Below, in pieces: positions 2 to 11,704 of a DNA stretch of 60,898 bases. This DNA comes from a bacterium. GTDB taxonomy: Bacteria; Patescibacteriota; Minisyncoccia; Phycocordibacterales; JAUSHB01. The translations under genes were made by a program, and so were the position numbers. Location of the stretch: positions 1 through 60,898 of the forward strand of contig JAUSHB010000004.1 in the NCBI GenBank assembly GCA_030648955.1, given 5' to 3'. The number at the start of each line of letters is the position of its first letter. Positions within the stretch are counted from its first letter, which is position 1. A model generated the notes under the pieces. That model had not been told where the DNA came from and ran no database searches. It worked only from the letters and a program-made list of their open reading frames with translations.

Positions 2-982
2 CTTTTTGAATCTCAAGTGTCCGCCTTGCGGTCGTTCAAGCTTCTCTCTGTCGAATTGGAGAATCCCCTGATGAGGAAAAAACTTTCTGAAATTGGAGAT
101 GACCTCCAGAGCGGAATGTCGATATCACAGGCGCTCAATAAGCATCCGAGCGTGTTCTCCGGTTTTTATGTGAACATGGTTCGCTCCGGAGAGGAGTCGG
201 GAAAATTGAGCGAAACATTTGCATATCTCGCCGACTATCTCGAGCGGACCTACGAACTAACCTCAAAGGTCCGCGGAGCATTGGCGTACCCGGCATTCGT
301 GTTCATGGTCTTTATTGTGATCATGGTTCTTCTGATGACTAAGATCGTGCCACAACTAGCCGATATGCTTAAGGCAGGAGGCCAAGAGCTTCCTGTGTAT
401 ACAAAAATTATTATAGGCATAAGCGATTTCATGGTAAACTACGGATTATTTTTTCTCGTAGTGCTTATTATGGCAGGAGTGGCAGTGTGGCGATATAGCA
501 AAGCGGGGGTCATTTCATTTTCCGCGATCAAATTAAAGCTCCCGCTCTTCGGTGATCTTTTTAGGAAAATTTACCTCGCGCGTATTTCAGACAATATGTA
601 CACCATGCTTTCAAGCGGGATCCCGATGATCAAATCGATAGAGATCAGCGCGAACGTCGTTGGAAACGACATATACAAAAAAATCCTTGAAGACGCCGCG
701 GACGCGATCAAAACAGGGAACACGATGTCGTCCGCGCTGGTGGGGTATAAAGAAATCCCGGCAATTATGATCCAGATGATCAAGGTGGGTGAGGAGACGG
801 GGCAAGTCGCGAATATTCTCCAAAAACTTGCGAAATTCTATCGCCGCGAGGTGGACACATCGGTTGAAACGCTTATTAGTCTTATTGAGCCAATATTGAT
901 GGTATTTTTGGGTCTTGGTGTCGGGATTGTCCTTGCCGCGGTCCTTATCCCGATCTACGACATCGCGGGAGGGATAAATTAG
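2..982 (+). CDS. pilC: Type IV pilus/T2SS inner-membrane platform protein PilC/GspF (5' partial)
   Basis: GESGKL and GEETG motifs, two T2SSF repeats, C-terminal EP(I)LMV...AVLIPIY; frame open to window start. Confidence 0.93.
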   Translation, partial: LFESQVSALRSFKLLSVELENPLMRKKLSEIGDDLQSGMSISQALNKHPSVFSGFYVNMVRSGEESGKLSETFAYLADYLERTYELTSKVRGALAYPAFVFMVFIVIMVLLMTKIVPQLADMLKAGGQELPVYTKIIIGISDFMVNYGLFFLVVLIMAGVAVWRYSKAGVISFSAIKLKLPLFGDLFRKIYLARISDNMYTMLSSGIPMIKSIEISANVVGNDIYKKILEDAADAIKTGNTMSSALVGYKEIPAIMIQMIKVGEETGQVANILQKLAKFYRREVDTSVETLISLIEPILMVFLGLGVGIVLAAVLIPIYDIAGGIN

Positions 983-1292: not shown

Positions 1293-1778
1293 ATGAAAAA
1301 ACGAGGTTTTACATTGATCGAACTTTTGGTCGTTATCGCCATTATTGGTATTCTCGCGTCAGTTGTGTTGGCATCGCTCAACACCGCGCGAACAAAAGGT
1401 TCAGACGCTGCAGGAAAAGCTCAAATGTCCGGGGCTCGTGCTCAAGCGGAACTTTTCTACGACAGTAATGGTAATAGCTATGATGGGGGTACTGCGGCGA
1501 CAAATGTCTGTGATCCTGCTGGTTTAGCTGGCGGTGTAAGTGGAGTCAACGCACTTGTTTTAGCAGCTGCAAAGAACGCGCTTAGCACCGCTGTTGTTGG
1601 TGTTGACGATACTGTTACCACAGTACCTGCGACTGCTTCTTGTAACGCGACTGCTAATGCATATGCCGCCGAAGTTGCCTTAAAGGGCGGCTCTTTCTTT
1701 TGTGTAGATTCTACAGGGAAAGGGCAGGTTAATGCCGCTGCTGGTCTCGACAACACAGCAACCGACGTTAGTTGTTAA
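1293..1778 (+). CDS. Type IV major pilin
   Basis: MKKRG|FTLIELLVVIAIIGILA class III signal peptide; C-terminal FCVDSTG with Cys pairs. Confidence 0.92.
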   Translation: MKKRGFTLIELLVVIAIIGILASVVLASLNTARTKGSDAAGKAQMSGARAQAELFYDSNGNSYDGGTAATNVCDPAGLAGGVSGVNALVLAAAKNALSTAVVGVDDTVTTVPATASCNATANAYAAEVALKGGSFFCVDSTGKGQVNAAAGLDNTATDVSC

Positions 1779-1954: not shown

Positions 1955-2686
1955 ATAAGGGGGTCAGGTACCCTTTTCTTTTGGTTCTGATATACTAAAT
2001 TCATGCCTCGCATCACTCGTACCGACATTGGCAATCATTGTTATCATGTCATAAATCGTGCCAACGCTCGACTCCCAATTTTCTTTACAGAAAAGGATTA
2101 CATTTTGTTCGAGAATGTTTTAGAAGAAGCTCAAGAAAAGTTTTCTATGAGAATTCTCGCGTATTGCCTTATGCCAAATCATTTTCACCTCGTACTGTAC
2201 CCAAGAAATGATGGTGATATGGGTAAATTCATGCAATGGCTCACACTCACTCATACGCAACGCTGGCATCAAATAAACAATACAAAGGGAACGGGGCACC
2301 TCTATCAAGGAAGGTACAAATCTTTTTTGATACAAGAAGACAACCATCTTCTTTCTGTCATTCGCTATGTGGAGCGAAATGCCCTTCGTGCAAAGCTTGT
2401 TAAAAAAGCAGAGAACTGGGGTTTCTGTAGTTTGGCGCGCAGGCTTTCAAGGGACACAAGAAAAAAGAAGCTTTTGTCAGCGTGGCCGATATCAGAACCC
2501 GAAGATTATCTTTTGTTTGTAAATACTCCGCAACCCAAAGAGGAAGAAGAAAATATTAGAGCATCTGTCGTAAGGGGGAAACCGTTGGGTACAGATACAT
2601 GGACTGTAAAAGTGATAAAAAAATTTAGACTCGAAGCTACCATCCGCTCGCCATGGAGGCCCCAAAAGGGTACCTGACCCCCTTAT
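1955..2686. mobile_element. RAYT-like element bounded by 23-bp perfect inverted repeats
   Basis: ataagggggtcaggtaccctttt (1955-1977) / aaaagggtacctgacccccttat (2664-2686) enclosing the transposase ORF. Confidence 0.8.
2003..2677 (+). CDS. REP-associated tyrosine (Y1/HUH) transposase, IS200-like TnpA/RAYT
   Basis: YHVINR, AYCLMPNHFHL (HUH), HLYQGRYKS, YVERNALRA motifs. Confidence 0.9.
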   Translation: MPRITRTDIGNHCYHVINRANARLPIFFTEKDYILFENVLEEAQEKFSMRILAYCLMPNHFHLVLYPRNDGDMGKFMQWLTLTHTQRWHQINNTKGTGHLYQGRYKSFLIQEDNHLLSVIRYVERNALRAKLVKKAENWGFCSLARRLSRDTRKKKLLSAWPISEPEDYLLFVNTPQPKEEEENIRASVVRGKPLGTDTWTVKVIKKFRLEATIRSPWRPQKGT

Positions 2687-2941: not shown

Positions 2942-3766
<825 letters not shown>

Positions 3767-3806
3767 ACTATAGAGATAGGAAAAGATTTTTATTTAAAAA
3801 GTAATC

Positions 3807-4439
3807 ATGTTTTTAAAACGCAAAAAGGGGTTGTTTAAAAAAGGAGGATTTACACTCATCGAGCTTCTCGTTGTGTTTTTTATTATGGTCTCAATACTCG
3901 CAATCATTATTCCTGACTACCTATCATATTCAGATAAAAGTGATTTTGATAATTTGACACTCGATATTGCCCTAACTATACGTGAAGCGCAGAGCTATGG
4001 GATAAGCGCAAAAGAAACATTTGCGGGTTCAGGTAACTTCGACATCCCCTATGGTGTTCATTTTGATATAAATAAACCCAACGAATTTCTCTTTTTTGAA
4101 GATACCAATAAAGATTATATGTATATTGATACAGATGATACTGTTATCAGTACTTACACCGTGAAACCCGGATATGCTCTTAGTGGTTTGTGTCGCGTGA
4201 AAGATGATGGTAACTCTGATAAGTGTAAAGTCGAGTGCTTGAGCACGACATTTAGAAGACCATCTCCCAATGCGTGGATGGGTATGAGAAAAAAACAAGG
4301 AAGTAGCTGTAGTAATATTTTGGATGGTGGTGTGAGCAGGCTTCAAGATAACGTGCGCATAGAACTTACTTCTCCAAGCGGAACAACAAAGAGTATCAAC
4401 ATAACTCCTTTTGGAAGTGTTTCAGTGCCGAATAATTAA
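3807..4439 (+). CDS. Minor pilin (FimT/GspH-like)
   Basis: GG|FTLIELLVV N-terminus; PYGVHF and TKSINITPFG features. Confidence 0.85.
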   Translation: MFLKRKKGLFKKGGFTLIELLVVFFIMVSILAIIIPDYLSYSDKSDFDNLTLDIALTIREAQSYGISAKETFAGSGNFDIPYGVHFDINKPNEFLFFEDTNKDYMYIDTDDTVISTYTVKPGYALSGLCRVKDDGNSDKCKVECLSTTFRRPSPNAWMGMRKKQGSSCSNILDGGVSRLQDNVRIELTSPSGTTKSINITPFGSVSVPNN

Positions 4440-4448
4440 TGATGTATT

Positions 4449-5171
4449 TTGAAAATCGTGAAATATAACCAGAAAAAAACTTTTTTCAATAATGAACGCG
4501 AGCGGGGGTTTATCCCATACGAGAGAACGCAATTTGACACTCAATCAGTGAAAAAAAACTTCAGGAGAAAAATAACTGACTCTCGTACGGGATTTACTCT
4601 CGTTGAACTCATTGTTTCGATGTCACTGTTTATTGTTGTTGTTTTTATTACCACCTCCGCATTTCTTACCCTTGCTGACTTGAGCAAGAAAGCCAGTGCA
4701 ACCAGAATCGCCATTGATAATTTGAGCGTTGCGGTTGAAGACATGGCGCGAAAATTGAGGACGGGATACTATTATCGATGTGCGGGCGAGGATGCATACG
4801 CAGATTTGGCCATACCGCCTGTCCCGCGTGATTGTTCGTCATCCACCTCGCTTGATAATTCATCCATATCATTTCAATGGAGTGAGACAAGTGCTCTTGC
4901 TGCATATTGGTTGGTAGTGGATCCAGGTAGTGGTAGGGGGCGAATAATGTTCGGTGATGCTAGTGGTGTCGGAGGGCTCTCCTGGTCAGATTATCTGACT
5001 TCTCCCGAAATCAATATCACTAATCTTAAATTTTACGTCATAGGTGCCGAAGGAGTAGGACTGGAACAGCCCCGTGTTAATATTGTAGTGCAGGGAATTG
5101 CGGGCATGGATGTTAAAACCCAATCAAATTTCACCATCTATACATCGGTGACACAACGGTCTCCAAAATAA
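4449..5171 (+). CDS. Minor pilin (PilW-like) with elongated leader peptide
   Basis: TG|FTLVELIVSMSLF at 4590; leader contains an earlier RG-FI motif at 4506. Confidence 0.82.
   Translation: MKIVKYNQKKTFFNNERERGFIPYERTQFDTQSVKKNFRRKITDSRTGFTLVELIVSMSLFIVVVFITTSAFLTLADLSKKASATRIAIDNLSVAVEDMARKLRTGYYYRCAGEDAYADLAIPPVPRDCSSSTSLDNSSISFQWSETSALAAYWLVVDPGSGRGRIMFGDASGVGGLSWSDYLTSPEINITNLKFYVIGAEGVGLEQPRVNIVVQGIAGMDVKTQSNFTIYTSVTQRSPK
4512..4593. mobile_element. Small inverted-repeat element inside prepilin leader
   Basis: atcccatacgagag / ctctcgtacgggat (14 bp, 1 mismatch); GF codons repeated 84 nt apart. Confidence 0.65.
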
Positions 5172-5215
5172 TAGAGTGAGAGAAAATACATATATGATTT
5201 TTTTTAAATTTAAAA

Positions 5216-5773
5216 ATGAGTAAAAAGATTTACAGCAAAAAAGGATTTACTCTTGTGGAAACACTTGTTGCGATATCGATTTTGTTAATGGCTGTGGTTG
5301 CTCCACTTACCATCCTCGCTAAAAACATAAGTGCGGCATTTGATGCAAAAAACAAAGTTACTGCGCTGTATCTCGCGGAAGACGCGATTGATTTTGTAAA
5401 ATACAAAATTGCGACAAAGTTCAATGCGGGCGATCCGGGTTGGCTTGATTGGCCCCCTGCAAATCCATCGTGTCCCGGTGACGGTGATGGGGGAGGGCCA
5501 TATTGCAGAGTTGATTCTTTCGCCGACGAAATAATTTCGTGCGCTGGTTCGGATTGTGTTCTTTTATTTGATTCCACGACAGGGGTATATGGGTACGTTT
5601 CTGGTTCGGCATCCAAGTTCACAAGAACCGTCACTGTTGCAAACGCTTCGCAAGACCCTAATCCAAATACGCCGTCCTCTGATGAGGTTGTTATAACCGC
5701 AACAGTTTTGTGGCAAGATCATGGAGTGGATAAAAAAACCACTATATCAGAACATGCATTTGCGTGGAGATAG
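5216..5773 (+). CDS. Minor pilin (PilV-like)
   Basis: KG|FTLVETLVAISIL; ALYLAEDAID; KFTRTVTV. Confidence 0.85.
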   Translation: MSKKIYSKKGFTLVETLVAISILLMAVVAPLTILAKNISAAFDAKNKVTALYLAEDAIDFVKYKIATKFNAGDPGWLDWPPANPSCPGDGDGGGPYCRVDSFADEIISCAGSDCVLLFDSTTGVYGYVSGSASKFTRTVTVANASQDPNPNTPSSDEVVITATVLWQDHGVDKKTTISEHAFAWR

Positions 5774-11224: not shown

Positions 11225-11295
11225 AGCGGGGTGGAGGAGTGGTACCTCGCAAGGCTCATAACCTTGAGACACCGGTTCAAATCCGGTCCCCGCAA
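11225..11295 (+). tRNA. tRNA-fMet (CAT), initiator
   Basis: Cloverleaf; unpaired 1:72 (A:A), A11:U24, anticodon arm CAAGG-CTCATAA-CCTTG; CCA not encoded. Confidence 0.85.
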
Positions 11296-11304
11296 CAAGT
11301 TTAT

Positions 11305-11339
11305 AAAAAAGCCGTTCGCTTTAGGCGGGCGGCTTTTTT
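11305..11339 (+). terminator. Intrinsic terminator
   Basis: aaaaaagccg...cggctttttt after tRNA. Confidence 0.75.
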
Positions 11340-11379
11340 ATTGAAAAGTACGTTTAAAAATGATATTGTTTCGTGTATT

Positions 11380-11455
11380 GCCGGGGTAGCTCAGTGGTTA
11401 GAGCGGGCGTTTCATAAGCGCCAGGTCGGCAGTTCAAATCTGCCCTCCGGCACCA
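11380..11455 (+). tRNA. tRNA with CAT anticodon (elongator Met; Ile2 not excluded)
   Basis: GCCGGGG/CTCCGGC acceptor, TTCATAA loop, GTTCAAAT T-loop, CCA encoded. Confidence 0.85.
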
Positions 11456-11632
11456 TAAAATGATCTCTTATTAAATACATCTTAGGTGGTGGATATTAGT
11501 TGACTAATGTCTACTGTGAGCTATCAGGGGTATTTTGAAATTGTATGGTTTTATGTATAATCATGAAGTCCCAATATTAAATAACCTTTTTCTTGAGCGG
11601 AAGAAAAATGTATTTAGTAGATACATAAAAAT

Positions 11633-11704
11633 GCGGCTGTAGTTCAACGGTAGAACACTCGCCTGTCACGCGAGAGGTCGTGGGGTCAGCACCCATCAGC
11701 CGCG
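11633..11704 (+). tRNA. tRNA-Asp (GTC)
   Basis: GCGGCTG/CAGCCGC acceptor, CTCGC-CTGTCAC-GCGAG anticodon arm, G73; atypical T-loop GTCAGCA. Confidence 0.88.

Follow-up and report, generated by a model that had tools for sequence, protein, structure and literature searches.

An in-frame, MITE-like hairpin element at the cleavage-site codons of a minor prepilin gene from Patescibacteria

A minor prepilin gene (pilin2) in the 60,898-nt stretch of patescibacterial DNA analyzed here (hereafter, the window) is interrupted in its leader region by what is very probably an inserted mobile hairpin element, termed element B (positions 4513-4592). The insertion, its target duplication, its in-frame length, the rebuilt cleavage motif, and the recurrence at the same codons across pilin families are all present in the DNA itself. 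We propose that a non-autonomous hairpin transposon of ~80 bp entered the TTTA of the Gly-Phe-Thr codons of pilin2 and duplicated these 4 nt, that the net gain of 84 nt kept the frame, and that the element end and the duplicated TTTA together recreated G|FT at the far end. Pilin2 would still be translated from GTG 4458 with a leader of 45 residues, and the PilD-type peptidase encoded nearby (2942-3766) would then cut after Gly45, discarding the 28 element-encoded residues. Based on sequence comparisons, we assign a probability of about 0.7 to this full mechanism, that is, a mobile hairpin in a leader, with the cut site rebuilt and the peptide removed by prepilin peptidase.

Pilin2 is part of a pilus gene cluster (Table 1) and lies two genes 3' of a prepilin peptidase gene, the product of which is the enzyme expected to cut the leader. 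The open reading frame (ORF) spans 4449..5171, and the gene-caller product, P0001, begins at 4458. An initial reading made from the letters of the window alone (the sequence-only reading) had pointed to an 84-nt interval of 28 codons between RG-FI and TG-FTLVE, and this interval was confirmed in the ORF, which reads ...NNERERG-FIPYERTQFDTQSVKKNFRRKITDSRTG-FTLVELIVS with the 28 codons separating two Phe codons. The downstream motif is a prepilin N-methylation motif (Pfam PF07963, residues 46-66), the only Pfam domain found in the protein. Pilin2 has the characteristics of a type IV prepilin, namely G(-1), F(+1), E(+5), a hydrophobic helix, and a dedicated A24 peptidase. Its homologues came from uncultured groundwater bacteria, one of them named Candidatus Azambacteria in its source, and many carried long N-terminal extensions containing repeated GF motifs. 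A profile search of the genome contigs with the pilin protein alignment returned distant pilins only, among the matches listed; the string GFTLVELIV is too generic. The adjacent pilin1 has a leader of ordinary length and represents an empty site for element B.

Table 1. Coordinates of the pilus gene cluster, of element B, and of related modules; positions refer to the window unless a locus is given.
Feature	Position	Strand	Details
T2SS-F-type platform gene	17-982		
Major-type pilin gene	1293-1778		
Y1 transposase gene	2003-2677		
Prepilin peptidase (PilD-type, peptidase A24)	2942..3766	+	Pfam PF06750 (1.6e-31), PF01478 (1e-08)
Pilin1, upstream minor pilin	3807..4439	+	14-aa leader MFLKRKKGLFKKGG, then FTLIE; first of four pilin-like genes (3807, 4449/4458, 5216, 5802)
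Pilin2, minor prepilin gene from conserved GTG	4458..5171	+	45-aa leader, 192-aa mature pilin
Pre-insertion leader codons	4458..4508	+	MKYNQKKTFFNNERERG (17 aa)
Probable 3' remnant of older module A (tentative)	4497..4508	+	CGCGAGCGGGGG; identical to the 3' end of A in L024/L025
Target-site duplication, left copy	4509..4512	+	TTTA
Element B, 80-nt MITE-like palindromic element	4513..4592	+	Covariance model 76.2 bits, E = 1.2e-16
Left terminal inverted repeat	4513..4525	+	TCCCATACGAGAG (13 nt)
Alternative start, in-frame GTG in loop	4548..4550	+	Would give 15-aa leader MKKNFRRKITDSRTG
Right terminal inverted repeat	4580..4592	+	CTCTCGTACGGGA (13 nt); last bases GGA (4590-4592) are the Gly(-1) codon
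Target-site duplication, right copy	4593..4596	+	TTTA; gives the Phe(+1) codon and first base of Thr(+2)
Mature pilin2, through stop codon	4593..5171	+	FTLVELIVSMSLF...
Pilin-like gene	5216		
Pilin-like gene	5802		Followed by ligA
Module A copy (approximate)	L024:733-787		
Module A copy (approximate)	L025:1327-1381		
Module A copy (approximate)	L027:3034-3084		
Module A copy (approximate)	L030:2945-2999		
Module A copy (approximate)	L026:3061-3114		
GIY-YIG ORF, 74 aa	L026:461-685		

The inverted repeat, originally given as 14 bp (4512-4525 / 4580-4593), is real, but 13 of these 14 positions are complementary and the terminal repeats proper are 13 nt; with mismatches, the repeat reaches 4503-4525 / 4580-4602 (23 nt). 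The 14-mer (<=2 mismatches) occurs only twice in the 60.9-kb window, with a chance expectation of 0.26, and two occurrences were reached in 1 of 100 shuffles. Folding of the 100 nt from 4503 to 4602 gave -34.1 kcal/mol, versus -16.3 ± 3.1 for shuffled sequences (z = -5.7). The imperfect direct repeat gg(g/a)ttta, also noticed from the letters, is present as GGGTTTA (4506-4512) and GGATTTA (4590-4596); its TTTA is the target-site duplication, and the GGA of the second copy is part of the right terminal repeat. The insertion point is the TTTA within GGG-TTT-ACT, the Gly(-1)-Phe(+1)-Thr(+2) codons of pilin2.

Element length (80 nt) and duplication (4 nt) add up to a net insertion of 84 nt, or 28 codons, and hence the pilin2 frame is preserved. 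With GGA as the last bases of the right arm and the duplicated TTTA directly behind them, the junction reads GGA TTT A(CT), Gly-Phe-Thr, and the cleavage motif G|FT(LVE) is rebuilt, so that the proposal of a cleavage site regenerated downstream held. Removal of 4513-4596 in silico yielded ...CGG GGG TTT ACT CTC GTT GAA, which translates to ...RG|FTLVE with a 17-aa leader. With the cut site recreated by the element itself, its 28 additional residues are probably lost along with the leader peptide, and a cleaved leader from which the peptidase discards element-encoded residues would be a tolerated parking place for such DNA. At the left junction (window 4506-4523), the residues G-F-I-P-Y-E have the prepilin-like G-F-x-x-x-E spacing, with Glu at +5 and no hydrophobic helix behind; this leftover motif recurs in nearly all pilin copies of B.

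Using a covariance model built from 14 copies, a single copy of element B was detected in the 61-kb window. Rfam 15 covariance models gave nothing near significance in window 3700-5300 or in loci L002, L024, and L025, and tRNAs alone reached the gathering score in the window, five of these genes being clustered at 11225-12192 and a sixth located at 20460-20530. Sequencing runs containing this region were DNA runs, with no RNA run among them. No form without the 84 nt was present in the contigs of four DNA runs, which are assembled contigs that rare forms could escape. In one of these comparisons, a relative's contig in run X2 read GTGTGAGCTCGCAAG immediately 5' of 4498.

Judged by its sequence features, B belongs to a MITE-like family of non-autonomous hairpin transposons, ~80 bp in length, from groundwater CPR/Patescibacteria. 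Like MITEs, its members have terminal inverted repeats and a duplication that varies from site to site, and they are dispersed over unrelated loci, with both occupied and empty sites observed. The termini of B, TCCCRTACGARAG and CTYTCGTAYGGGA, form 13-bp terminal inverted repeats around a loop of ~54 nt, and 97.3% of arm cells are paired across 14 copies. An arm-only pattern scan of metagenome contigs (groundwater CPR) identified 16 loci (L033-L048) at ~7 distinct sites. Five of these sites were intergenic, such as the one preceding mreB in L043, and the remainder comprised one pilin and one non-pilin gene; pilin leaders accounted for 2 of the 16 loci. Copies placed in the same orientation have homologous loops. 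Site-specific direct repeats of 4-5 nt abut the arms at 9 of 12 distinct sites: TTTA in the window, L024, L030, and L031; TTCA in L032; TTTG in L043; TTCG in L045; TTTCA in L037; and TCAAA in L033. GGR lies directly 5' of the duplication at seven of the nine sites that have one, including the non-pilin sites L043 and L037. The site pattern suggests that B prefers the sequence GGR|TTYR and that selection may reinforce this preference.

Presence and absence of B correspond to exact 84-nt filled/empty pairs in pilin2 (L024 versus L027) and in pilin1 (L031/L032 versus L024), so that the empty orthologues sought for both genes were found. All eight genic copies compared are exactly 80 nt, for a net 84 nt, and contain no stop codon in the host frame. 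The length of intergenic copies varies (78-81 nt), and five of six have 1-3 stops in the corresponding frame. The B-encoded peptides are basic and hydrophilic, as fits a cytoplasmic leader. Together, the dispersed copies, the duplications, and the filled/empty pairs uphold the original suggestion of a mobile inverted-repeat element as opposed to a native leader. The accompanying suggestion that it targets conserved GF(T) codons fared less well; the same codons are indeed occupied in several pilin families, but exclusive targeting was overstated given the predominance of intergenic sites and the non-pilin site, a distribution that fits the GGR|TTYR preference plus selection.

B was observed at G|F codons in at least four pilin families. 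In pilin2 it is found in the window, L002, and L024, the first two sharing a loop type and the third having a different loop that is nearer to the pilin1 copy of L031 than to the window copy. In pilin1 it is found in loci L027, L031, and L032 and in proteins P0025 and P0026, and major-type pilins with B comprise P0027, P0028, P0029, and P0031. The long leaders of relatives were checked for inverted repeats, and these were present. When 1.84 billion representative proteins were searched with a profile built from the element's translation, all matches were pilins except for one false match; the profile included the GF flanks, and this search is therefore biased toward pilins.

A second unit, module A, sits at the same G|F codons as B, either alone or upstream of B. 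It consists of a 47-nt hairpin (CCCCCACACCTAT..ATAGGTGTG) and a mini-hairpin (GCTCGCAACGCGAGC; covarying variant GCCCGCAAGGCGGGC), and with its 4-nt duplication amounts to 51 nt, or 17 codons, translated FTxTPxNxGVSSQRERG. The end of A (...GGGGG) followed by TTTA gives Gly-Phe, and the cleavage motif is rebuilt as with B. Elements were also stacked, with A followed by B in L024 and L030 and with A in both pilin1 and pilin2 of L025, in which the open frame implies a leader of up to about 76-80 aa. For pilin1 of L025, the called ATG (508) implies a leader of 59 aa, with 72 open codons upstream of Phe, and the loop of its A copy contains a 72-nt (24-codon) in-frame insert (L025:560-690), an insertion nested in an insertion.

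Two further settings of B were noted. At L045:2603-2682 and L034:324-403 (minus strand), B, flanked by the TTCG duplication, lies in frame within a membrane protein other than a pilin, in its N-terminal cytoplasmic tail; this protein, MHNRKKAF[VPYES...YFRTGF]GLIGLLITLAIIALA, is without a Pfam family, and the insertion occupies another N-terminal position preceding a membrane helix. Upstream of mreB at L043:3420-3660 (minus strand), a long inverted repeat resembling A (CCCCCACACCTATGCTGTCATT ... AATGACAGCATGGGTGTGGGGG, loop ~95 nt) has B inserted exactly at its GGGGG|TTTG end. B seems to favor the ends of A besides pilin GF codons. Viral contigs scanned for A and for B gave no matches.

Comparison of orthologues revealed which property of the element is maintained. 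The L002 copy (54% protein identity) has a 14/14 stem, via G4523A together with C4582T and via A4517G, which repairs an A.C mismatch. In L001 (90% identity), all three in-element substitutions are non-synonymous, and two of the three, C4515T (C-G to U-G) and C4588T (A.C to A-U), keep or improve pairing. Pair 11-73 is A-U in nine and G-C in five of the 14 copies, and is never mixed. Orthologues retain pairing in the stem even though the encoded peptide varies; what is constrained is therefore the inverted repeat or hairpin (mobility or mRNA structure) and not the peptide, as expected for a discarded leader.

Compensatory changes between orthologues would also suit a vertically inherited cis-regulatory mRNA structure of pilin2, such as an attenuator, RNase III site, or thermosensor, that is not mobile DNA. 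The strong fold (z = -5.7 to -9.1 in pilin copies) and the flanks GGGGG / CYCTC, which lengthen the stem in pilin contexts, point the same way. We nevertheless consider this explanation very unlikely. Unrelated intergenic positions and a non-pilin gene carry the same arms with homologous loops, every such copy having a direct repeat of its own; orthologues differ patchily in whether exactly these 84 nt are present; L021 functions despite having lost the left arm; and there is no Rfam match. The hairpin of a mobile element may still have acquired a secondary regulatory role. Slightly less probable again is that B is a REP doublet (REPIN) mobilized by the Y1 (IS200-like / RAYT-like) transposase whose gene lies 1.8 kb upstream. 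REPINs are hairpins of a size similar to B, and the Y1_Tnp gene (PF01797, 2.8e-16) is located within the pilus cluster. However, this gene has its own repeats, a perfect 23-bp inverted repeat (ATAAGGGGGTCAGGTACCCTTTT) and seven copies of AAGGGGGTCAG found only beside it, and we rejected the link because these flanking repeats are unrelated to B. Moreover, B has variable 4-5-nt target duplications, unlike Y1/HUH products (to our knowledge, Y1/HUH single-strand transposition makes no target duplications), and it is present at orthologous loci from which the Y1 gene is absent. The least probable of the explanations weighed here, with a negligible chance of being correct, is that the 54 nt between the arms act as a phase-variation switch, with inversion of the start region. 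The inverted repeats do bracket a segment containing a possible start codon, but strand-changing joints were absent from the four DNA runs (as assembled contigs, which rare forms would escape), the orientation of B is identical in all pilin copies, 54 nt is very short for recombinase-mediated inversion, and no recombinase gene adjoins.

A more substantial alternative concerns the start codon. We lean toward translation from GTG 4458, which would give a basic leader of 45 residues instead of 17. The start position and the N-terminus MK(Y/F/L)(N/K)Q.K are common to the window, L002, L024, and the element-free P0007 (MKLKQQKT...), the frame is open back to the stop codon of the upstream gene at every locus, and the observed indels (84, 51, 72, 108, and 21 nt) are all multiples of 3. 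In L021, pilin1 has a decayed B copy without the hairpin that is still open in frame behind the conserved start. The alternative, which we regard as rather unlikely, is that B took over initiation, with translation starting at GTG 4548 in the loop to produce the 15-aa leader MKKNFRRKITDSRTG, and with the old leader and left arm reduced to 5' untranslated RNA. The hairpin would then bracket the start region, and there would be neither a long leader nor any peptidase clean-up beyond that of an ordinary leader. In-frame GTG 4548 is kept in L001, L002, and L021, and each genic B loop offers an in-frame ATG or GTG from which a basic leader of 10-19 aa would result. In pilin1 of L027, no start codon is possible upstream of the left arm and the start must be within the element loop, and pilin2 of L021, which has lost its left arm, starts at an ATG in the former loop sequence. 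Described leaders of class III signal peptides are 6-26 aa (PMC4471445), and 15 residues is a normal length, close to the 14 aa of neighboring pilin1, whereas 45 aa falls outside that range. Against a takeover in pilin2 stand the conserved GTG 4458 and N-terminal residues, shared even with the element-free P0007, and the open frames from the upstream stop with indels only in multiples of 3. Chance alone gives an in-frame start within about 20 codons in roughly two thirds of cases, and several intergenic B copies have no in-frame start. A Shine-Dalgarno-like motif is found at neither candidate, 4458 or 4548. A true start inside the interval, which the sequence-only reading had named as grounds for refutation, must exist in pilin1 of L027 and may exist in the window, in which the internal GTG 4548 and the conserved upstream GTG are both in frame; both leader forms, 45 aa and 15 aa, may be made.

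The notion that B always supplies its own start codon was dropped because chance suffices and several intergenic copies have none. P0002 (90% identical, called as MGFTLVE...) was rejected as an example of an empty site, since its DNA (L001) contains the element. A C-to-T change at L001:1342 (ACG to ATG, corresponding to window 4587-4589) moved the gene-caller start to MGFTLVE, so that neither leader nor element shows in the called protein. For these pilins, start codons as called are unreliable; P0001 and P0002 were called differently.

With regard to what moves B, no autonomous partner with B-type ends was found among the 48 loci. Locus L026 contains a 316-bp element (415-730) with A-type ends (CCCCCACACCT...) and a TTAT duplication that encloses the 74-aa GIY-YIG ORF, and beside it a second hairpin-bounded element (L026:96-361) that encloses a GIY-YIG ORF of about 78 aa. 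These are candidate autonomous relatives of the miniature modules. In the window, a tblastn search using the GIY-YIG proteins of L026 as queries detected no gene of this kind. The Y1 gene of the window encodes a 224-aa product between the major pilin gene and pilD. Its 23-bp inverted repeat is at 1955-1977 / 2664-2686, copies of the hairpin GGGGCACAAAGGACTTTCCTTTGTAAACCCTAATTAT are near it at 1832-1905 and 2838-2858, and the AAGGGGGTCAG repeats occur nowhere else in the window; orthologous clusters are without the Y1 gene. This region (1830-2860) looks like a RAYT with its own REP-like repeats.

In-frame palindromic MITEs are already known, chiefly the Rickettsia palindromic elements (RPEs), which are mobile, palindromic repeats that are inserted in frame and translated (Ogata et al. 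2000, as summarized in PMC10969869). RPEs and B are both small palindromic mobile repeats that lie in frame in coding genes and are tolerated through their position in the protein, and the eight genic copies of B lie in ORFs, add a net multiple of three, and are stop-free in the host frame, as for RPEs. In that summary, RPEs are about 100-150 bp, occur in many unrelated metabolic genes at protein surfaces, and are kept in the mature protein. B, in contrast, is 80 bp with a 4-bp duplication, recurs at one codon junction (the prepilin cleavage site), rebuilds this site, and lies in the part that is cut off; the likeness is one of description, in a different phylum and at a different size. With bacterial MITEs such as Correia/CREE of Neisseria, ERIC, RUP, and Nezha, B shares terminal inverted repeats, a short duplication, dispersed copies, the lack of a transposase gene, and a hairpin once transcribed. 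Those MITEs are mostly intergenic. The termini of module A match the 316-bp element, which carries only the 74-aa GIY-YIG nuclease, a gene product unlike a classical DDE transposase partner.

Pilin2 agrees with class III signal peptides in Gly(-1), Phe(+1), Glu(+5), the hydrophobic helix, the basic hydrophilic leader, and the adjacent A24 peptidase gene, and differs in its 45-aa open frame, compared with 6-26 aa in described leaders (PMC4471445). Inteins and self-splicing introns resemble B in logic only, as selfish insertions into essential genes whose product is removed and whose host protein is unharmed. B involves no splicing chemistry and no Hint or ribozyme domain, its 28 codons having no Pfam domain besides N_methyl and no Rfam match, and its removal, should it occur, would be performed by a host protease that already cleaves at this position. 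In a literature search, we came across no MITE reported at a prepilin cleavage site and none reported in Patescibacteria. What is likely new here is an in-frame MITE whose position and ends make the leader peptidase the likely remover of its peptide.

A and B may even be specialized parasites of prepilin signal peptides, a possibility that we put forward tentatively and at less than even odds. On this reading, they would prefer GGR|TTYAC, which is the Gly-Phe-Thr codon string common to all type IV pilins, their ends would have been shaped to rebuild G|FT, their net lengths of 84 and 51 nt would keep the frame, and their basic, stop-free frame would yield an acceptable cytoplasmic leader, with the peptidase erasing the insertion. 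If so, these elements would be a protease-dependent counterpart of inteins, with stacking to leaders of ~76-80 residues and with start-codon donation (L027), and tiny GIY-YIG nucleases may be what moves them. Should the long leaders be both produced and cleaved, prepilin peptidases would accept leaders two- to threefold longer than any described, and the annotation of pilin genes and start codons in CPR genomes would change. The precursor, with two G-F-x-x-x-E motifs and a membrane helix behind one only, could serve as a test system for PilD recognition. These findings point to little-known hairpin elements in Patescibacteria, larger members of which carry only a GIY-YIG nuclease, and suggest that selfish DNA can reside in a gene of essential function in a tiny, gene-dense genome at almost no cost because a host protease would remove its footprint.
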